Shown one piece after another: positions 16,516 through 31,963 of a DNA stretch of 64,000 nt. Positions within the stretch are counted from its first letter, which is position 1; each line of letters starts with the position of its first letter. Origin of the DNA: an uncultured delta proteobacterium (lineage in GTDB: Bacteria > Desulfobacterota > SM23-61); the NCBI GenBank assembly GCA_963712535.1, contig CAVQIK010000008.1:34798-98797 (forward strand). Direction: 5' to 3'. The notes under the pieces were generated by a model. The model was not told where the DNA came from. It saw nothing but the letters and a program-made list of their open reading frames with translations, and did no database searches. The position numbers were made by a program, and so were the translations under genes.

Positions 16516-17208
16516 TCAGTATTCGAAATAAAGGGGTAAGGCAACGGGCATCGTGAAAGGCAAACGAACCTCCTGGTACGGGAGAACCGGCATGCAGGTG
16601 GAACTCCGGGGACGGCATTCCCGGCCCCCTCCCCAGTCCGGCGCCGAAACCGAGCGGATATCTTTGCACTCCGACTCCGCATCTTCAGGCCGGAGATACG
16701 CCAGCCCGGATCTCACGATCTGGTAGCGCAAATTCGTGTCCACGTAGGAATTCCCCGTGCAACCTTCCCCCTCAAAATACAGGTACACCGAGGGAAAGAA
16801 CGGGTCCAGATCTCCTGTGTTCGAGGATATGGTGATGAACCGGGAAAGCGAGGGAATGAATACGGAAAGATACCCCTCCAGGTCGTTTGGCAGAATTCCA
16901 AGAAACTGTCCTTTTGCGTCGTACACCCGGGGTCCCTGCACAACTTTCACGCTGCTCGAGGAGCTGGACCCGGCCGGCCCTTGAGGTCCTGCCGGTCCCA
17001 TGGGCCCCTGGGGACCCTGCGGGCCTGTTTTATTCCAGAAGATCGGGTTCTCGGAGGATCGGCAGGCGCCCGGGCTGCTTACGATTCTTAGTTGCCCGTC
17101 ATTCTTCTGGAAGCACCCATGAATCCCATTTCCCTGGCCGTAACTCGGCATTCCCGACGCTATGAGAAATGCAAAAATCGCTCCAAGGAAAAAAATCGCA
17201 ATTTTCAT
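16516..17208 (-). CDS. Exported protein with short collagen-like repeat
   Basis: RBS GAGGAGG, signal peptide, IHGCFQKNDGQLRIV...C, GPQGPQGPMGPAGPQGPAG, and a Cys-containing C-terminal domain. Confidence 0.75.
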   Translation of the reverse strand: MKIAIFFLGAIFAFLIASGMPSYGQGNGIHGCFQKNDGQLRIVSSPGACRSSENPIFWNKTGPQGPQGPMGPAGPQGPAGSSSSSSVKVVQGPRVYDAKGQFLGILPNDLEGYLSVFIPSLSRFITISSNTGDLDPFFPSVYLYFEGEGCTGNSYVDTNLRYQIVRSGLAYLRPEDAESECKDIRSVSAPDWGGGRECRPRSSTCMPVLPYQEVRLPFTMPVALPLYFEY

Positions 17209-17643
17209 ATGACCTCCTCTCGATGATGGATCCATTCCATGTCCATGCTCGACTGCATCGACCTGAAAACTGCGCCTTGGGAACAGCAAGAAAAAGGCCA
17301 AGGAGCAGCATCCGCAGAACTCGGAAATTATTTGGTTTTATCTGAAATCAAGGGTCTAGGGCGGGTTCGAAATTGAGATTTTGTAGTTCATATATGTACA
17401 TCGTCAAATCATCAGGTAAATTTTTCTGATGCCCGTTAAGCCTGCCAATTCGCGGCTGAACGAATCATGACGGTTGGCGCAGGATTCCCTGAAAACCATT
17501 TCCCGGAAATTGGCATCAAAAAATAGGAAACGAGGGAGGGCCTATGGAGGGTGAGTCGTCCGCACGTAGCGGGTAGGCGGCAGGGGCGAAGGCAGTTGCA
17601 TTGAGGGTCAAATCTTACAAATCGAGCTTTTGTGAGGTAAAAA

Positions 17644-17934: not shown

Positions 17935-20391
17935 CTATTTTTTATCCCTCTCCGCGTCAAATTCCTTCATTCGGCTTGCGAGGTCATGCAGCTTTTCATC
18001 GACGAGATAATTCACCGTTCCTGCAGGGTATTTTCCGTCGCTCCCCTTTTCCCCCGCGGCGAGCCCGGTTAGGATTTCGATTCCCTGGTCGATGGTCTGC
18101 ACCGGGTAGATGTGAAATTTCCCCGCCGCTACCGCTTCCACAACATCTTTCCGGAGCATGAGGTCTCCGATGTTCTGGTGGGGGATCATCACCCCCTGGT
18201 TCCCGGTCAACCCCCGGGCGCGGCAGACGTCGAAGAAACCCTCGATCTTCTGGTTGACTCCCCCGATCGGCTGGATTTCGCCGTTCTGGTTGACCGATCC
18301 GGTAACGGCAATATCCTGGCGCAGGGGAACCCCGACCAGGCTGGAGAGGATGGCATACACCTCCGTGCGAAGAAGCGCTGTCCCCGTCCACCCCGCTGTA
18401 GGACTGTTCGAAGGCCAGGCTGGCCGTGAGCGTCATGGGCTTGTCCTGGGCGTATTTCCCCCGCAGGTACCCGCCCAGGATGAGCACCCCCTTATTGTGG
18501 GTCCGCCCCGACAGGTCGGCCTCCCGCTCGATGTTGATGATCCCCGATTTGCCCATGGAGGTCTTGGCCGTGATCCGGGAGGGTTTGCCGAAGGCGTATT
18601 CCCCCATGATCGTAGACCGAAAGGCCGTTGACCTGGCCCACCTTGGCCCCGTCGGAGTCGATCAGGATGATCCCGTCTTCGATCATCTCCTGGATCTTGT
18701 CCTCGATCATCTTGTTGCGGTAGATCTTCTCGGCGATGGCCTGGTCCACGTGCTTTTCCGTAGACCTTGTCGCTTCCCATCCTTCCTGGCCCAGTAACTC
18801 GCCTCCCGCAGGATGTCGCGTGATGCGGTGAAATTCCGTGGAAAGCTTCTTCTGCCGTCCCGCCAGCCGCACCCCGTATTCGATGACCGCGGCCACCCCG
18901 CTGCGGTCGAAGGGCAGGAGCTTCTCATCCTGGCAGATCTTGCGGATGAAAGCGGCGTACTGCACCTGGTTCTTCCTTGCGCTCCATCACCGTGTCGAAG
19001 TCGGCCTTGATCTTGAAGATCTTCTTGAAATCCTCATCCGCGTAATAGAGGGTCTCGTATAGGTAGGCAGTCGCCGATCATGACCACTTTCACCCGGACG
19101 TCGATCGGCTCGGGCTTCAGCGCCGAGCTGGCGAAGAGGTAAAAGGGATCGAAGGACTGCATCTCCATGCGAGCGGTTCCGCAGGGTCCGCTTCAGGGCG
19201 ATCCAGACCCCCGGCTCGATGAAAACATCGAGGGCGTTGAGGACCAGGTACCCCCCGTTCGCCCGGAGGAACGACCCGCTCTTGATCTTGGTGAAATCGG
19301 TCTTCCAGCATCCCGCCCATCCCCATGCTCCGTTCGATCGTTCCGAAGAGGTTGCGGTAGGTGGGGGAAGTCTCGATGATCACCGGCGCCCCTTTGGTTT
19401 CGGAGTTATCCACCAGGACATTGACCTGGAATTCGCTGAAGGTATCCACCGGCGGCGGGCATCATCAGGCCGGGGATGGGAAGCTGGGGAGTCTCGGCCT
19501 TGGGCTGAAATCGGGCCGGGTTTTCCAGGATGTTCTCTTTGACTTCATCCAGGTAGGCGTGGATCTTGGGCTGTTTGTATTTCTCCCGGATGTCGCCGAT
19601 CGCGCCTTCCACGAGGTGGGAGATGGCGGATTTATCCAGGGCGGACAGCTCCTCCTGGATGGTCTTTTCCACTTTGCGCGTTTCCTTCAGCACCTGCTCC
19701 ATCTCGGTGCTTAGAGCTGGCTGTATTTGGTTTTCAGCTCTTCGAAGGTCTCCTTCGGGAACTGTCCCTGGTCCACCAGGTTCTCCAGCTGATCCAGGGG
19801 CATGGCGTTGCCGGCCACCATGGGGACGACGTCCGGACGGGTGAAAGGACCCATCTGGACCTGCACCACGGCAAATCCTTCCTTCTTGGCCCGGGCTTCA
19901 AAGTCCTTGACCATCCCCTTCTCCCGCTCCCGGTGCTTTTCCACCAGTTCCCTTCTCTGTCTTCTGGTATTCTTCGCTCTCGAAGATGAGCGGGATCTTC
20001 TTCTTCAGGGATTCGATCAGATCGTCCATGTCTTTCTTGAAGACCTTCCCCTGGCCCGCGGGCAGGCAGATGCATTTGGGCTGATCCGGGTCTTTGAAGT
20101 TATTCACGTAGCAGAGGTCGTCGGGGATCTTGCCCGCTTTGTCGATCTCCTCCAAAAGGCATTTGATCGTCGTGTTGCGCCCGGTCCCCACCAGCCCCAC
20201 GACAAAGATGTTGTAGCCCAGGCTGTCCATCTCCAGGCCCAGGCGGATGGCTTTCAGCGCCCGCTCCTGGCCGATGATATCCGAGACAGGGCTGAACTTC
20301 GTTCGTCGTCTCGAAGGGCAGCGATTCGGGAGGGCAGCGCCACCGCAATTTTTCAACCGGAACTTCCTGCGTATTTTATAAGATCCGCCAT
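17935..20391 (-). CDS. Lon-family ATP-dependent protease (AAA plus Lon C domain; multiple frameshifts)
   Basis: Fragments LRWRC, DIIGQERALKAIRLGLEM...NIFVVG..GTGRNT, EQSYSGVDGDSAS, IAVTGSVNQNGEIQPIGGVNQKIEGFFDVC. RBS AGGAG before ATG 20391. Confidence 0.85.
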
Positions 20392-20498
20392 GGAGCTCCT
20401 CCCGAAACATGAAATTTTGAACCGTTACAGAATTCGACAGTTTTATTATACCCTTATTGGGCCAGATAGGGAGCAAGAAACAGGCCGATTGCCGGGCG

Positions 20499-20566: not shown

Positions 20567-21551
20567 TCAGACGAAGAGATGATCCGCCAGCTTCCGCAGC
20601 ATGACCGGCCCTTGAATCTCGGTTTCGAAGAGGGGAACGATGGAACGGACTCCATCGCCGAAGGCCTGCCAGATCTCCTCCATGTGCTCGTCCTGCATCT
20701 TCACCCGGTTGCGCACGAATTCCGGAGAATCGGCCTTGACCGTCTCCTTCTGGATCAGGCCGTTGACGATGACTCCGCCCACCGGAATTCCGAAATCGTG
20801 GAACCACTGGATGAACCGGGTGATGACCGCGATGGGGAGGGCTCTCCGGCAGGGTCACGAAGAAGAAGGAGGTCATCGCGGGATCGGTCAGGAGGACTTT
20901 CGCATTGGCCATCCGGTCCTTGAACTGGAGCAGGTAGTCCATCAAGGGGTCCTTCTCCTCCTTCTTGGTGTAGGAAAGGGCCTTGCGCAGGACCTTGGCC
21001 TCATCCCGGCTCTTGAGCATCTTATCCACCCAGAGGGAGTAAACCTTGGACATACCCAGCAGCCGCCGGGCATTGGCGGTGGGCGCCGTGTCAAAGACGT
21101 AGATTTCGTATTCGTCCTTGAACATCAGGTCGATCATGTTCTCAAACATGGCCGACTCTTCAAAAGCCGGGTTCATCGTGGCCGACTCGACGAATTCCTC
21201 GGCCTTGATGGTAATGTCGGCGAATTTGAGGAACCAGGCGATCTTTTCCCGGATCTGCCTGTTTGGACCGCTCGATGGATTCCTTGGTGTCGATCTCGAA
21301 GGCATAACATTGTTTCTCGTCGCAGATCAGACACCGGTTTGCCGAAAACGTCCTGGTTCAGCAGGTTGCTCAGGCTGTGGACCGGGTTGGTGGAAGCCAG
21401 GAGGGTCTTCTTCCCCTGTTTGGCAAACCACAGGGCCGCGGCCCCGGCCATGATGGTCTTGCCCACTCCGCCCTTTGCCCCCGAAAAAGACGTACTTGAG
21501 CTTGGGGTTGGCTTTCATATAGTCGGTCATGCTGGTGGTGATTCCGCTCAT
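20567..21551 (-). CDS. ArsA/GET3/TRC40-family ATPase, subunit 2 (frameshifted)
   Basis: KYVFFGGKG(G.)GKTI, LLASTNPVHSLSNL, MNPAFEESAMF, FDTAPTANARRLL, FFFVTLPE, GGVIVNGLI. ATG overlaps the stop of subunit 1. Confidence 0.85.
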
Positions 21552-22542
21552 GTTTTCCCTCCGTTGCCGAACATGGCCTTGGCCATCTTTTCGATCATCG
21601 GCAGACCGGTGACATCCCGTTCCATCTCGGGGACCGAAGCCAGGATCTCGTTCTTGAAAGTCTCATCGATGAGCTTCAGGTATTTGTCCTGCATGGTGAT
21701 CCGGTGGCGCAGATACTCGGGGATGTCCTGGTTCTTCAGCTCCGGGGGAAGGACCCGGTTGATGATGTACCCGCTCAGGGGGACGTCGAACTTGGCGAAG
21801 AGCTGAGCGGCCTTCTGGGTGTCTTTGATGATCATCTCCTCGGGCACGATGACAAAGAAGAAGGCCGTCTTCTGCTTGTCCGTGAGGATGCTCGAGGATT
21901 TGTTGATCCGGTCTTTGATCCACAAGCAGCTCGGTGAGGATCTTGTCCTCCTCCGTTTCCTTCTCCCTCTTCACGATGGCCGCTACCTTGTCGTATTCGG
22001 CCATCTCGCCCCGGAGGTGGGTAATTTTATCGATCCAGGCGTCATACACCGAGGCCATGGAGAGGTAGTAGAGGGCATGACCCAGGGGAACGAGGTCGTA
22101 GATGTAGTAGTCATAGCCGCCTTTGACCACGATGTCCACGACTTCGTCGAAGATCGCGCTCTCTTCCATCGCCGGCTCGGCGGCCGCGGCCTGGATGTAG
22201 CCTTCGATCTCCTCGGGAACTTTCGGCAGCCCGTACATATCCAGGATCTTCTTGCGAATCTCGTCCTGGTATTCCTTGATCCGGCGGTCGGCGTCGATCT
22301 CCTGGGCGTAGAGGTTGGGCATGATCTCCACCGCGCCCTTTGCCGAAGATGTCCCGCTTGAAGATGTCGCTCAGCGAGGCCTGGGGGTCCACGGAAAAGA
22401 CCAGGACCTTGTGTCCCTTGCTTGGCCAGGTAATAGGCCGTAGCCGCGGAGAAGGTGGTCTTTCCCAGTCCTCCTTTTCCGCCGAACATGATGTACCGCC
22501 GGTCGGGAAACTTTTCAAAAATGTCTGCGAGTGGAATGGCAC
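21548..22542 (-). CDS. ArsA/GET3/TRC40-family ATPase, subunit 1 (frameshifted)
   Basis: RBS AAGGAGGT plus [73 protein letters not shown]. Confidence 0.85.
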
Positions 22543-22643: not shown

Positions 22644-22938
22644 TTACGCCAGGGCGTCCGTCAGATCCCGCTCCCGGAGCATCCTCCGCTTCCAGGTGGA
22701 AATCTGGGGGACCACATAGGGCAGAATACGCAGGGAATAATAAGGAGGCAGAATGGGGACCCCCAGCAGGTCACCCATGGTGATCAGGATGAAGAGGTGC
22801 TCCATGCTCCCCCGGGTTTTCAGGGCGAACCGGGCGGTGTCGTGGGCCGCCATGCCGTAGATCATCTCCTTGGCGGCTTTTCCAAACCTGCTCGAAGATG
22901 CCTTTCTTGTTCCTCGATTTTTCTTCCTCTTTGGCCAT
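22644..22938 (-). CDS. Small hypothetical protein with one hydrophobic segment (cory-CC-star-like; one frameshift)
   Basis: RBS GGAGAAGG plus ATG 22938. MAKEEEK...GIFEQVWK joins AAKEMIYG...LFILITMGDLLGVPILPPYYSLRILPYVVPQISTWKRRMLRE after removing one base from the A-run. Confidence 0.7.
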
Positions 22939-23339: not shown

Positions 23340-25116
23340 ATGACGTCGTTATATGCTTTGATCTTGGGCATCGTCTGGATTGTTCTGGTCTACAAATTCT
23401 ACGCCAAATACATAGACCGGAAAATTATCATGGCCGACTCCAAGAAAGCGACTCCCGCCGTCATGTACATGGACGGGGTGGAGTTCATGCCCGCCAACAA
23501 AAACGTCCTCTTTGGTTTCCAATACAAATCCATCTGCGGCATAGGACCTGTCGCCGGGGCGATCTTCGCCTCGAACTGGGGCTGGCTGCCGGCCATGCTC
23601 TACCTCCTGCTGGGCGTGGCTTTGCTCGGGTGGGTCCATGACTACACCTCCACCATGGTCGGCGTCCGCAGGGAGGGAATGAGCCTGGGAGGCATGAGTT
23701 ACACCCTGATCTCTCCCCGGGCCAGAACCCTGATCAGCATCTTCATCTATTTCAACCTCATGCTCAGCTTCGGCGCCTTTGCGGTGATGATCGCCTCCAA
23801 CTTCACCGTCCCCACCGGTCCCCTGGGAATCATCATCTGGGTCCTGATGGGCCTCCTGGCCGGCCAGATGATTTACAAATGGAAGCAATCCATTGTGACC
23901 ACCACTCTGGTGACCGTGGTCATCACCTTCTTCGGGATCTTCTACCTGACCAGCCTGCCCTCGGTGACGGCATTTTTCAAAGCGATCAGCGGCGGCGACA
24001 AGCCCCCCATCATCTTCGGGGTCACCAACCAGGCCCAGTTCATCTGGACGATCGCGGTTCTGATCTTCTGTTATTTCGGGGCCATCCTGCCCATCTGGCG
24101 CTGGGCCCAGCCCATCAACTACCTGGGGTTCTGGGTGGTTTTCATCGGCATGGTTTGCATTTCGCTGGGAATCATCTTCTGGAATCCCTCCTTCGCCAAC
24201 TTCCCCGCTTACAAAGGATGGTGGTGGGGGACCAATCCTCTCTGGCCGATCCTTTTCGTGACCCTCATGTGCGGGGCGGTCTCGGGCTGGCATTCCCTGG
24301 TGGGCAGCTCGGGAACCGCCCGAATGCTGGAGAAGGAAACCGACACCCTGCCGGTGGCCGGCGGCGCCATGCTCCTGGAGATGATCATGGGCATGCTGGC
24401 CCTGATCATCGCCGTATCGGCCTTCGGGAGTTTTGATGGGTTTGCCGCCGCTATGAAGGGAGGAGGACCGCCCGCGGTCTTCACTGCCGGGGGCGCAAAA
24501 TTCTTCGCGGCCATCGGAATTCCGATCGCGCAGTGCCCTTGTCTTCGGCAACATCATGTTTGCCGTCATCGCCATGACCCTCATCCACCTGGGGGTGAGG
24601 TTCATGCGCCTCTACGGGGCTGATGTGCTCGGGGAACACTGGCCGATCTTCAAGAACGTCCAGTTTTCCACCATCTTCACCCTGATCATCTTCGGCGTCT
24701 TCTGCTTCACCGGGGTTCTGTCCACCCTCTGGTTCCTGGGAGGGGCGTTCAACCAGATGCTGGCCGCCATGGCCTTGCTCATCGCCACCTGCTGGCTGGC
24801 CTACGAGAAGAAGGCGTACGGGTTTACCCTCTACCCGTCCATCTTCCTCTTCGTGACCACCATCTCGGCGGCCATCTGGATCTCCTACAAGACGATCAGA
24901 CATTTCTTCATCACGCCGAATATCACCACGGACCGGGCCGTCGGCGACTGGCTCACGGGCCTGATCGCCCTCTTCCTGGTTTACTGTGCGGCGGTCTTGA
25001 TCAAAGACGGCTTTGCGGCCATAAGGAAATTCACCAGCGAAAAGCGAGCACCGGGCAAACCGGCTGCGGTGCCCGGCATCGGCGGAAGTGCAAGTAGGGA
25101 ATCAGGAAAGCAGTAA
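23340..25116 (+). CDS. cstA: Carbon starvation CstA-family transporter (one frameshift ~24540)
   Basis: TPAVMYMDGVEFMPA, LFGFQYKSICGIGPVAGAI, WGWLPA, GWVHDY, PILFVTLMCGAVSGWHSLVGSSGTARML, GGAMLLE. A second ORF supplies the remaining TM helices. Confidence 0.88.
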
Positions 25117-28592: not shown

Positions 28593-28650
28593 ACGGATAC
28601 CAAATTTCAAACAGATCCCAGCCGCGAGGCTCCTCAAGAGCGAGGTTGGC

Positions 28651-29190
28651 ATGAGAAACCGTAAATTCCCAAAGGGTCTGATCCAGGTCTACACCGGGAA
28701 CGGGAAAGGCAAGACCACCGCCGCCCTCGGGCTTGCGCTGAGAGCCGCCGGGCACCGGTTCAAGGTTCTAGTGATCCAGTTTCTGAAGGGGGGCATCGCC
28801 TACGGGGAGCTGAAATCGGCCGGGAAGCTGTCGCCCTACCTCACCATCCTTCCCGTAGGGCGAGAATGTTTCGTCGATCGGAGAAACCCTCATCCGGTGG
28901 ACCGGCGGTGCGCTCGAGACGGCTGGAAGCTGGCTCAGGAATCCGTAAAGGGGCAAAAGTATCAGCTGGTGATACTGGATGAAATCAATGTTGCGGTAAA
29001 GTACGGGCTGGTCCCCCTGGAAGAGCTCCTGGCTTTGATGAAAAATAAGCCGGAAGATGTGGAGCTGGTCCTCACGGGAAGATGGGCCAAACCGGAAGTT
29101 CTCCGGCAGGCTGACCTGGTGACGGAAATGAAAGAGGTCAAGCATTATTACAGGAAGGGGATCGATAGCAGGGTGGGGATCGAAAGATAA
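28651..29190 (+). CDS. cobO: Cob(I)alamin adenosyltransferase
   Basis: GLIQVYTGNGKGKTTAALGLALRAAG, IQFLKG, ILDEIN, ELVLTGR, ADLVTEM..VKHYY. Confidence 0.95.
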   Translation: MRNRKFPKGLIQVYTGNGKGKTTAALGLALRAAGHRFKVLVIQFLKGGIAYGELKSAGKLSPYLTILPVGRECFVDRRNPHPVDRRCARDGWKLAQESVKGQKYQLVILDEINVAVKYGLVPLEELLALMKNKPEDVELVLTGRWAKPEVLRQADLVTEMKEVKHYYRKGIDSRVGIER

Positions 29191-29442
29191 CAAAGGCCGC
29201 AAGTCGCAAGGCGCGAGAGCGCAAGGGGTAAAAACCCGCCGCACGACACCAAAGATCAATTACGCTGCATTAACAATAAAGGGGCACAAGCCCTAGGTGA
29301 GGGGCATGTCCTTACGCCTCGCGCTCTCGCGCCCTCGCGCCTCCGGTTTTTGCGGTTTTTCCCTTCTTTGTTGCGGTATTTCAAAACCTCATGCTAGAAT
29401 CAATTCCGCTCCAATCGACGATCGCGGAGGGATGATTCTCCT

Positions 29443-29991
29443 TTGCGGGTCATCAGCGGGAAATTGAAAGGGAAGAGGCTCTTTACCCCCAAAGGCCTCG
29501 AGCTCCGGCCGACTTCCGACCGGGTGAAAGAAGCGATCTTTAACATCCTGCAGAACTCGATCGAGAATCGGGTGGTGTTGGACCTTTTTGCCGGGACCGG
29601 CGCTCTGGGCATCGAAGCGTTAAGCCGGGGGGCGAAAAGCGCTGTTTTCCTGGAAGCAAGTTCCCGGTCACTGGCCGTCCTCCGCAAGAATATCGAGGCA
29701 TGCAAGCTAGAGGCGCAGGCCGAAGTGCTGGCCCTGGAGGTCCCCCGAGGAATTCAAGCGCTGTCCCGGAGGGGGGACTCGTTCCATCTCGTTTTTCTGG
29801 ACCCTCCTTACGCAAGAGGGTTGGCCCGGATTGCGCTGGAAGCGCTCTCGGAAGGTGAGATTCTGGCCCCCGGCGCCCGAATTATCGCGGAACACTCCCC
29901 CGCCGAGGACCTGGATTCCATCTCCCATCTGGAGCAGGTGGACCGCCGGAAATACGGAAGCACGCTGGTTTCGTTCTTTATTAATCCCTAA
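29443..29991 (+). CDS. rsmD: 16S rRNA m2G966 methyltransferase
   Basis: MRVISG..KG, LRPTSDRVKEAIFNIL, LDLFAGTGALGIEALSRGA, FLDPPY, YG. Confidence 0.95.
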   Translation: MRVISGKLKGKRLFTPKGLELRPTSDRVKEAIFNILQNSIENRVVLDLFAGTGALGIEALSRGAKSAVFLEASSRSLAVLRKNIEACKLEAQAEVLALEVPRGIQALSRRGDSFHLVFLDPPYARGLARIALEALSEGEILAPGARIIAEHSPAEDLDSISHLEQVDRRKYGSTLVSFFINP

Positions 29992-30142
29992 AAGAGGAAC
30001 CAAGATTGATTTTTATTGGGACGCAGATTTCCGCAGATAGGCGCAGATTATCGTAAAGCACGAGGAATAAGGATCTTGAAATCCTGCAAATCTGCGTTCA
30101 TCTGCGTCCAAATTTTGCCGTTGACCACCCGCGGAGGTTTCG

Positions 30143-30643
30143 ATGAACGATAAAATTGCCGTATACCCGGGGTCCTTCGACCCCATCACCAACGGCCACG
30201 TGAACCTGATTGAGCGGGCGCTCCAGATTTTTGACAAGCTCATCGTCGCTGTGGCTTACAACCCCAACAAGACCGCCCTCTTCTCCGTCGAGGAGCGGCT
30301 GGAGATGATCCAGATCGCCCTGAAAAACGACCCCCGCCTGACGGTGGCCTCGTTCAGCGGACTCCTCGTGGAATTCGTCTCATCGCAGGGGGCGAATGTC
30401 ATCATCCGCGGGCTGCGCGCCCTCTCGGATTTCGAGTACGAATTCCAGATGACCCTGATGAACCGCAAGCTCAACCGGAAAGTAGACACCATGTTTCTGA
30501 TGACCGGATACAAATGGTTTTACACCAGTTCCAAGATTATCAAGGAAGCGGCTTCGCTCGGCGGATCTGTCCGAGGGCTGGTTCCGGAGATCGTGCATCA
30601 AAGGCTGAAAGATAAGCTTCCTGCCTACAGGGATGTCCATTGA
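30143..30643 (+). CDS. coaD: Phosphopantetheine adenylyltransferase
   Basis: AVYPGSFDPITNGH, IIRGLRALSDFEYEFQM, SS..IKE. Confidence 0.97.
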   Translation: MNDKIAVYPGSFDPITNGHVNLIERALQIFDKLIVAVAYNPNKTALFSVEERLEMIQIALKNDPRLTVASFSGLLVEFVSSQGANVIIRGLRALSDFEYEFQMTLMNRKLNRKVDTMFLMTGYKWFYTSSKIIKEAASLGGSVRGLVPEIVHQRLKDKLPAYRDVH

Positions 30644-30763
30644 AAGAAAAGGGGGAAAAGCGGAAAAGGGGAAATGGCGAAATGGACTGCGTATTCTTCA
30701 TTCCCGTTTCGCCTTTTGCCCTTTTCGCCCTTTCGCCCGTTTTATTTTTGAAAGGAGTCAAAG

Positions 30764-31963
30764 ATGAAATTTGCCGAACGCGTCAACCGCATCAAACCGT
30801 CGCCGACCTTTGCGGCAGCCGCCAAAGCCGCGGCCATGCGGGCCAAAGGGATCGAGGTCATCAGTTTTGCCCAGGGCGAGCCGGACTTTGACACCCCGGA
30901 CAACATCAAGGAGGCGGCCTACAAGGCCATACGAGACGGCTTCACGAAGTACACCCCGGCGTCCGGGTTCCCCGAGCTGAAGGATGCCATTATTCAGAAA
31001 TTCAAACGGGACAACAATCTGACCTACGACCGGTCCCAGGTCTTCGCTTCGGCCGGCGCCAAGCTGATCCTCTACAACCTGGCCCAGGCGCTCTTCCAGG
31101 CGGGCGATGAGGTCATCGTTCCCGCCCCTTACTGGGTCTCCTACACGGATATCGTCCTCCTGATGGACGCCACTCCGATCGTGATCCCCACCTCCGAGGA
31201 GCAGGGGTTCAAAATTTCCGCGCAGCAGCTCAAGTCCGCCATCACCCCGCGCACCAAGGCGATCATTCTCAACAGCCCCTGCAACCCCACCGGGGCGACG
31301 TACACGGCCGCGGAGCTGAAGTCCCTCGCGGAGGTGCTCCTGCCCAAAAAGATCCTCATCATCGCCGACGACATTTACGAAAAGTTCGTCTACGACGGAA
31401 CCGTCTTCACCTGCATTGCCTCACTCGGGAAAGAGGTCCAGGACCAGACCGTCGTCGTGAACGGGGTCTCCAAGACCTACTCCATGACCGGCTGGCGGAT
31501 GGGATACGCGGCCGGCTCGGCGGAGATCATGGCGGCCATGGACAAGATCCAGACTCAGAACGTCTCCAACCCGGTCTCGTTCTGCCAGAAAGCCGCCGTG
31601 GAAGCCCTGGCCGGGCCCCAGGATTCCGTGCAGAAGATGATCACCGAGTTTGACCGGCGGCGGAAGGTCATCGTCCAGCGCCTGAACGCGATGCCGGGGG
31701 TCCGGTGCCAGCTTCCGAAAGGCGCGTTCTATGTCTTCCCCAACATCTCCGGGCTTTTCGGCAAAAAATGGGGCGACCGCGACCGGACTCTATCCAATTC
31801 ATGGGACGTGGCCGATTTCATCCTGGAAGAGGCGCATGTCGCGCTGGTGGCGGGGGCGGCGTTCGGAAACGACCAGTACATCCGGTTCTCCTATGCGACT
31901 TCCATGGCGAACATCGAAAAAGGAATGGACCGGATGCAGGAAGCTTTGAAAAAGCTGAAATAA
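30764..31963 (+). CDS. PLP-dependent aminotransferase class I (aspartate aminotransferase-like)
   Basis: GEPDFDTP, PAPYWVSY, ILNSPCNPTG, DDIYE, NGVSKTYSMTGWRMGY, GAFY. Confidence 0.93.
   Translation: MKFAERVNRIKPSPTFAAAAKAAAMRAKGIEVISFAQGEPDFDTPDNIKEAAYKAIRDGFTKYTPASGFPELKDAIIQKFKRDNNLTYDRSQVFASAGAKLILYNLAQALFQAGDEVIVPAPYWVSYTDIVLLMDATPIVIPTSEEQGFKISAQQLKSAITPRTKAIILNSPCNPTGATYTAAELKSLAEVLLPKKILIIADDIYEKFVYDGTVFTCIASLGKEVQDQTVVVNGVSKTYSMTGWRMGYAAGSAEIMAAMDKIQTQNVSNPVSFCQKAAVEALAGPQDSVQKMITEFDRRRKVIVQRLNAMPGVRCQLPKGAFYVFPNISGLFGKKWGDRDRTLSNSWDVADFILEEAHVALVAGAAFGNDQYIRFSYATSMANIEKGMDRMQEALKKLK

Follow-up and report, generated by a model that had tools for sequence, protein, structure and literature searches.

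The closest described relatives of the locus considered here are operons, recognized by comparative genomics, in which cstA, cstX and a homolog of arsA stand together, and for which it has been proposed that the ArsA homologs energize CstA through CstX (Castillo & Saier 2010, Int J Microbiol 2010:187373; PMC2963123). The same work recorded neighboring ArsA pairs for two organisms and observed that the D of the 'SXD' motif was replaceable only by N; it described no split into two subunit types, no heterodimer and no unequal sites (PMC2963123). The DNA analyzed here, a 64,000-nucleotide (nt) stretch from an uncultured delta proteobacterium (Desulfobacterota; SM23-61; GCA_963712535.1, contig CAVQIK010000008.1, positions 34,798-98,797) that is called the window throughout, carries at 20,567-22,542 two adjacent genes for ATPases of the Get3/ArsA type, subunit 1 and subunit 2. 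It shares with the operons mentioned above a CstA permease, a CstX protein of approximately 90 amino acids (aa), single-domain ArsA homologs of approximately 300-330 aa, and the lack of arsenic genes, and is an error-laden copy of this module, which is widespread and had been predicted before. Two points are not in the literature found: the module ATPase is a fixed pair of unlike subunits, one of which carries a natural change of the Get3 D57N type, and its decay has been one-sided. These features suggest a heterodimeric ATPase of the Get3/ArsA fold with one hydrolytic site, that of subunit 1, and a second site, that of subunit 2, which binds ATP and probably does not hydrolyze it, a reading held here with moderate confidence. 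In the literature, experimental work on the CstA-CstX-ATPase module was not found, and neither were later papers on the module past 2010.

The two proteins are placed in the family by profile scores obtained on frame-corrected translations, with 235.5 bits for subunit 1 and 216.8 bits for subunit 2 against PF02374 (cut-off 24.3), and 233.1 and 211.9 bits, respectively, against TIGR00345 (cut-off 135). Both possess the deviant Walker A motif GKGGxGK[ST] with its signature lysine, and both have the Walker B Asp, while the canonical switch II, DTAPTGH, is found in neither. The switch-I catalytic Asp (S-T-D-P-A) is present in subunit 1, within SVDPQASL, and is absent from subunit 2, where STNPVHSL aligns with the STDPAHSL of the archaeal Get3 proteins 3zq6 and 3ug6, the Asn occupying the position of Get3 D57 and ArsA D45. 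A preliminary description of this DNA had quoted the motifs STNPVHSL, DTAPT, SVDPQASL and DLVPLGH, all of which are found on the minus strand where it had placed them, the AAC codon for the Asn lying exactly at 21388-21386. Its statement that both subunits keep GKGGxGKT holds only after frame correction: in subunit 2 an inserted base at 21470 lies inside the Walker A motif, so that the raw frame reads GGKGRSGQD and GGKGGVGKT emerges only once that base is skipped.

The unequal motifs are shared by orthologs over a wide taxonomic range. A scan of public genomes, with one genome per species, yielded 80 loci with 68-78% identity to subunit 2, which span Desulfobacterota, Chloroflexota, Acidobacteriota, Binatota, Methylomirabilota, Gemmatimonadota, Nitrospinota and Pseudomonadota. 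Subunit 2 displays GGKGGVGKT and STNPVHS[LI] in all 80, and DTAP[TA]ANA in 79 by automatic tally, the 80th row having caught an upstream string ending in FDTA that was not separately confirmed; GGKGGLGKT and DL[VA]PLGHA were present in subunit 1 at each of the 71 loci that could be scored. The Asn is found in 98 of 98 subunit 2 orthologs, encoded by AAC in 55 and by AAT in 43, and the Asp in 93 of 93 subunit 1 orthologs (GAC in 57, GAT in 36); since the codons turn over while the residue is fixed, selection acts on the Asn and Asp residues themselves. The motif pattern thus appears to be fixed, rather than the product of drift, across at least eight phyla, and the finding that the preliminary description had named as fatal to its reading, namely orthologs carrying Asp and DTAP, clearly does not materialize. 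The pair is always adjacent and in the same gene order, with a spacing that ranges from a 4-nt overlap to a 40-nt gap in most loci. The sole large interruption among the 80, of approximately 1.7 kb between subunit 1 and subunit 2, occurs in an Anaerolineales genome (L086:3232-6978).

The history of the pair can be followed in a maximum-likelihood tree of 53 sequences, where the subunit-1 types form one clade (support 99) and the subunit-2 types another (support 100) whose branching order mirrors that of the first, and where the longest inner branch of the whole tree is the stem of the subunit-2 clade (0.98). Closest to the two clades are, first, a pair whose members are both canonical (STDPSHSL, DTAPIGH) and, second, a single canonical gene (P0152; STDPAHSL, DTAPTGH) located beside a DUF7990 gene and cstA. 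The combination of canonical nearest relatives with two mirrored clades argues for a single, old duplication followed by loss of the Asp in one copy, in which a canonical, presumably homodimeric module ATPase duplicated once, one of the copies lost its catalytic Asp, and both have since been inherited as a pair. The Asn type could be traced to approximately 38% identity in a search of 1.84 billion representative proteins.

The more divergent members of this group provide a further indication of which site is live. In P0127 (L120:5001-5981), a protein of the subunit 2 type, the Walker A motif, or P-loop, has become GGKSSVGNT, with loss of its own P-loop Lys and retention of the signature Lys and of the Asn, and its partner P0271 (L120:4024-5001) displays GGKGGLGKT and SLDPQANL. 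The P0127 lineage is nested inside the main subunit-2 clade, retains the CstA/DUF7990 context, and appears to represent a natural single-site version of the pair. In a second such protein of the subunit 2 type, P0145, the Asn-Pro has been lost altogether (SLSTLHSL), next to a partner, P0272, with GKGGHGKT and SIDFQASL. Switch II of subunit 1 diverges further in the P0127 and P0145 lineages (DLDIQNH and DMPSLYY), and its P-loop and Asp stay. An unequal pair was also identified at L125:2080-4057, with SIDPQASL and DMMPHGH in one member and STNPIHSL and DTAPVAL in the other; it lies among gas-vesicle-like genes (GvpO, plus faint or weak matches to GvpG and HSP20) and not beside cstA, so the unequal pair is not confined to the CstA module. 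Throughout the five lineages examined, the P-loop and Asp of subunit 1 are kept in all and the Asp of subunit 2 is found in none, and additional decay occurs only in subunit 2, in the deepest or fastest-evolving lineages. Such one-sided decay is the strongest comparative argument available, and supports the view that the hydrolytic site would be that of subunit 1, the site of subunit 2 being dispensable for catalysis.

In deviant-Walker-A ATPases, the signature lysine reaches into the nucleotide site of the partner, and switch I and switch II act in cis on one nucleotide. The catalytic Asp of yeast Get3 is D57, and the D57N variant binds ATP without hydrolyzing it (PMC12506534). Since the Asn of subunit 2 aligns with D57, it is reasonable to model the pair as a heterodimer in which one site is live and the other holds ATP, and it is precisely this concrete prediction that gives a natural, universally fixed equivalent of Get3 D57N its interest. 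According to such a model, ATP bound at both sites would close the dimer, and hydrolysis would take place only at the site built on the P-loop of subunit 1. The site of subunit 2 would bind ATP with slow or no turnover and could serve as a latch or sensor, while subunit 2 would still donate its signature lysine to the site of subunit 1; the DLVPLGH of subunit 1 would reflect a change in how switch II is coupled to the helical subdomain, and not lost catalysis.

The preliminary description had also arrived at an asymmetric heterodimer with one active and one regulatory site, and this part of its proposal stands on comparative grounds, through the adjacency of the genes, the mirrored clades, the one-sided decay and the D57N precedent. 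The route by which it got there, complementary degeneracy of the two subunits, is not supported. DLVPLGH still has the Walker B Asp as well as the Pro, Gly and His, and the fused two-domain relatives indicate how ordinary such a motif is: in 48 of 88 (55%) exactly one of the two switch II motifs is non-canonical, frequently as DLxPPGL, and 82 of the 88 keep the Asp in both halves, so that switch-II variation is widespread and does not conflict with an intact catalytic Asp. Loss of the switch-I Asp is the rare event in this family, and switch-II variation the ordinary one. The further divergence of switch II in the subunit 1 of the P0127 and P0145 lineages, next to a retained P-loop and Asp, speaks against complementary decay as well. 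Moreover, because the switches act in cis, two inactivating changes of this kind would abolish both sites, and no active site would remain beside a regulatory one.

Several observations weigh against the assignment of the live site to subunit 1. In other respects subunit 2 is the more canonical of the two, with GGKGGVGKT, DTAPT and a PL..E..G motif near its C-terminus, while subunit 1 departs from the family in switch II and has PE where subunit 2 has PL, so that the decision as to which site is live rests mainly on the Asp/Asn difference. In addition, an Asn might support slow hydrolysis in this context, and the invariance of the subunit 2 P-loop within the main clade means that this site is under selection for some nucleotide function.

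In a first alternative, an improbable one, both sites are active: the Asn would be tolerated, the water being activated by another residue or by the partner, the two sites would work symmetrically, and the motif differences would tune kinetics. The P-loop, the DTAPT and the C-terminal adenine-side motif of subunit 2 are invariant in the 80 loci, which shows selection on its nucleotide site, and subunit 2 is overall at least as conserved as subunit 1. On the other hand, the equivalent change in Get3 abolishes hydrolysis and keeps ATP binding (PMC12506534), and the existence of subunit 2 lineages without the P-loop Lys or without the Asn-Pro, beside an intact partner, is not expected if that site is needed for catalysis. 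Quite improbable, in turn, is the literal version of complementary decay, with one damaged motif per site and hydrolysis at neither, which would make the pair an ATP-binding switch or sensor and not a motor; the lack of a complete DTAPTGH in either subunit and the PE of subunit 1 are in keeping with it, but subunit 1 retains all known catalytic residues (the Asp residues of switch I and Walker B, and both lysines of Walker A), and the DLxPPGL-type switch II occurs in one half of fused relatives that keep the Asp in both.

It is very improbable that the two subunits form separate homodimers with different jobs, such as an ATP-locked holdase for subunit 2 and an ATPase for subunit 1, with co-location serving co-regulation only. 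Get3 and its archaeal homologs are homodimers or tetramers, as stated in the titles of their PDB entries, and the canonical module with a single gene (P0152) exists; however, the adjacency of the two genes is strict, their order fixed and start/stop overlap frequent, the phylogenies of the two subunits are mirror images of each other, and the conservation of the signature Lys in a subunit 2 with a dead P-loop is sensible only if it serves the site of the partner.

All of the above refers to frame-corrected genes, as neither ATPase gene is an open reading frame (ORF) in the window: the coding sequence of subunit 1 runs through frames 0, 1, 2 and 0, and that of subunit 2 through frames 2, 0, 1, 2 and 0. 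The preliminary description was correct as to the reality of the motifs, but left the breakage of both genes unmentioned. Alignment of the DNA to five intact orthologs reveals seven single-base insertions and no deletions in the pair, and no stop-creating substitutions; the shifts were mapped by protein-guided frames together with this multi-ortholog alignment, since gap counting against the single locus L039 is too noisy at approximately 80% identity. Twelve genomes from the same family encode subunit 2 as an intact 326-aa ORF, with 87-96% identity, preceded in every case by an intact partner gene, and more than 100 close relatives of subunit 2 are found among the matches listed in the protein collection, nearly all of 326 aa. 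The ratio of nonsynonymous to synonymous substitution rates (dN/dS) of the frame-corrected window genes is 0.03-0.06 against orthologs and 0.13 against the nearest relative, values which indicate that both genes have been kept by strong purifying selection up to the present.

The shifts, furthermore, are not limited to the ATPase genes. Between 17900 and 28100 there are at least 20 +1 shifts and no -1 shifts, on both strands, which strike the Lon-like protease, both ATPases, cstX, cstA, two small genes, asd and cbiQ, while the genes at 28650-31950 are free of them. The genome consists of 22 contigs, yet its estimated completeness is 75.6%. In the nearest relative, a metagenome-assembled genome of few contigs, the shifts in subunit 1 lie at other positions, and subunit 2 is intact. 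Given the intact orthologs and the low dN/dS, the seven insertions are very likely errors of assembly (sequencing) and not biology. Programmed +1 frameshifting, or quadruplet decoding, was considered and rejected: the insertion contexts have no common motif, the insertions are missing from orthologs that are 93-96% identical in protein sequence, both strands have affected genes, and the nearest relative is shifted elsewhere. That the seven frameshifts are genuine mutations of a pseudogene, and the motif pattern without function in this organism, is a highly improbable alternative, for which one may cite the density of seven frameshifts within 2 kb and the fact that a second copy of the pair was not found in the genome of this assembly, but which is contradicted by the dN/dS values, by the restriction to +1 insertions with neither deletions nor stop-creating substitutions, by the like shifts in asd, cbiQ, cstA and the Lon-like gene on both strands next to a clean 28.6-32 kb, and by the different positions in the nearest relative. 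As a practical consequence, ORF-based claims within 17.9-28.1 kb, including those regarding small or recoded genes beside cstA, require frame correction first.

The limits of the genes also merit comment (Table 1). The TGA stop codon of subunit 1 (21550-21548) overlaps the ATG of subunit 2 in an ATGA junction. Upstream of the subunit 1 Walker A motif there is no in-frame ATG, GTG or TTG other than the Met that directly precedes FGGKGG, and a start at this Met would remove strand beta-1 and the N-terminal helix that are present in the subunit 1 model. The probable start is an ATT at 22537-22535, located 6 nt past an AGGAGG; it is kept in 24 loci, approximately half of which also have an in-frame GTG three codons upstream as an alternative, and most other phyla have ATG at this codon position, while two have TTG. 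The upper limit of 22542 used in the preliminary description corresponds to an out-of-frame GTG, and is replaced here by the ATT.

Table 1. Genes, motifs and inserted bases of the ATPase pair and its neighbors, in window positions.
Feature	Position	Strand	Details	Basis
Subunit 1 gene	21548..22537	-	Asp-keeping Get3/ArsA-type ATPase, ~328 aa	frames, profile scores, start codon, ortholog model
Subunit 1 Walker A (deviant)	22457..22483	-	GGKGGLGKT
Subunit 1 switch I	22372..22395	-	SVDPQASL; catalytic Asp codon GAC 22389-22387
Subunit 1 switch II	22077..22097	-	DLVPLGH; Leu-Val and Leu replace Thr-Ala and Thr
Subunit 1 insertions	~22419, ~22335, ~21925	-	single bases	alignment to five intact orthologs
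Subunit 2 gene	20567..21551	-	Asn-bearing Get3/ArsA-type ATPase, 326 aa	frames, profile scores, intact orthologs, ortholog model
Subunit 2 Walker A (deviant)	21455..21482	-	GGKGGVGKT, split by extra C at 21470
Subunit 2 switch I	21371..21394	-	STNPVHSL; Asn codon AAC 21388-21386 at catalytic Asp position
Subunit 2 switch II	21072..21092	-	DTAPTAN; Ala-Asn in place of Gly-His of DTAPTGH
Subunit 2 insertions	~21470, ~21330, ~21257, ~20841	-	single bases	alignment to five intact orthologs
cstX	22644..22938	-	CstX/DUF7990 small protein, ~97 aa; head of ATPase operon; one +1 insertion near 5' end
cstA	23340..25116	+	CstA-family permease; divergent from ATPase operon; one +1 shift near 24500	tblastn
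Lon-like protease gene	17935-20476	-	LonC type (LonC_helical, AAA_32, Lon_C)	like L039:11151-14140

CstA-family permeases, which are very widespread, serve in the uptake of pyruvate or peptides. In most of the 80 loci a cstA gene is found beside the pair; the usual order starts with cstA and a small gene, continues with one DUF7990 gene or two, and ends with subunit 1 and subunit 2 or, in some loci, with a third DUF7990 gene after them, and one to three CstX/DUF7990 copies flank the pair in nearly all of them. Upstream of the pair, DUF7990/CstX is present as two diverged paralogs in most lineages outside Desulfobacterota (L059-L119, Chloroflexota, Acidobacteriota and others), and in the L059-L119 loci a third copy often directly follows subunit 2; the clade of the window has a single copy. 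CstX, identified through a Pfam match of its ortholog to PF25952 and a weak NCBIfam match to cory-CC-star, contains a single Pro-rich segment of moderate hydrophobicity, and might act as client or adaptor of the ATPase pair. A bolder idea, tentative and on balance unlikely, is that CstA, CstX and the unequal pair constitute a new class of ATP-driven transporter, with the heterodimer, hydrolytic at subunit 1 only and with a subunit 2 site that would sense energy or stay latched by ATP permanently, docked by CstX on the CstA permease; a secondary carrier would in this manner be made into a primary pump, or be gated by the ATP level of the cell, as ArsA does for ArsB. Confirmation of the unequal sites would help to decide between the energizing of transport and the chaperoning of membrane proteins as the role of the pair.

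The Lon-like protease was considered as a further part of the module and rejected, being found after the pair in the nearest relatives alone and missing from the other phyla; a CMD-family gene likewise accompanies the pair in those relatives only and lies outside the conserved module. In the relative G008, synteny over 60 kb around the orthologous pair is limited to the pair and the Lon-like gene. Further along the window, a minus-strand ORF at 16516-17301 has a signal-like N-terminus, a short collagen-like Gly-X-Y run (GPQGPQGPMGPAGPQGPAG) and then a run of Ser.

Among structurally characterized proteins, the best sequence and fold matches are the archaeal Get3/TRC40 proteins of M. thermautotrophicus (3ZQ6) and M. 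jannaschii (3UG6/3UG7), with E values of 1e-53 to 1e-55. The AlphaFold model of a subunit 2 ortholog with 96% identity (pLDDT 84.6) gives TM scores of 0.75-0.83 to archaeal Get3 in Foldseek, and that of a subunit 1 ortholog with 80% identity (pLDDT 81.5) gives 0.76-0.83, the matches to 3ZQ6 and 3UG6/3UG7 covering 307-328 aligned columns. The models of both subunits contain a nucleotide-binding core and an alpha-helical subdomain, and both subunits are therefore predicted to possess the Get3 fold, with a length equal to that of the archaeal proteins and an alignment over the full length that includes the helical subdomain. The archaeal proteins, however, form homo-oligomers and have STDPAHSL, DTAPTGH and a CxxC zinc clasp, while the window encodes two unlike chains; the clasp is absent from both, the alignments placing SPEF of subunit 2 and IPEY of subunit 1 at the position of the CEFC/CDFC of Get3.

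E. coli ArsA (1F48) resembles the pair in that homologous nucleotide-binding halves face each other and in that the ATPase is attached to a permease of the secondary-carrier type, and its halves A1 and A2 are non-equivalent. Unlike the pair, it is a single 583-aa chain whose halves both carry Asp and DTAPTGH, and it has a metalloid site formed by Cys113, Cys172 and Cys422. The window genes are two separate genes of approximately 326 aa, not fused, that reach only 96.4 and 98.1 bits against the ArsA equivalog TIGR04291 (cut-off 650). The metalloid Cys triad was not found in them, as subunit 1 has no Cys and the two of subunit 2 (ICDEKQC) are not conserved beyond near relatives, and there are no ars genes near the pair, whose neighbors are cstX, cstA, the Lon-like protease gene and asd.

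A parallel in terms of gene arrangement is offered by BagA/BagB of M. tuberculosis (Rv3679/Rv3680), an interacting pair of Get3-like ATPases cited in PMC10597346 and encoded by adjacent, unlike bacterial genes whose products work together. By profile score they are nevertheless distant, the window proteins reaching 34-49 bits against NF053622/NF053621 (cut-offs 400 and 521), and BagA/BagB do not have the CstA context.

In terms of mechanism, the comparison is with heterodimeric ABC exporters such as TM287/288 and TAP1/2, where the consensus site hydrolyzes ATP and the degenerate site binds ATP and holds the dimer. These exporters also have two ATP sites sandwiched between unlike subunits, although they are of an unrelated fold and family and the likeness concerns mechanism only. 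If the unequal sites of the pair are confirmed, the degenerate-site principle, as known from heterodimeric ABC transporters and ArsA, would extend to separate chains of the Get3/ArsA fold.

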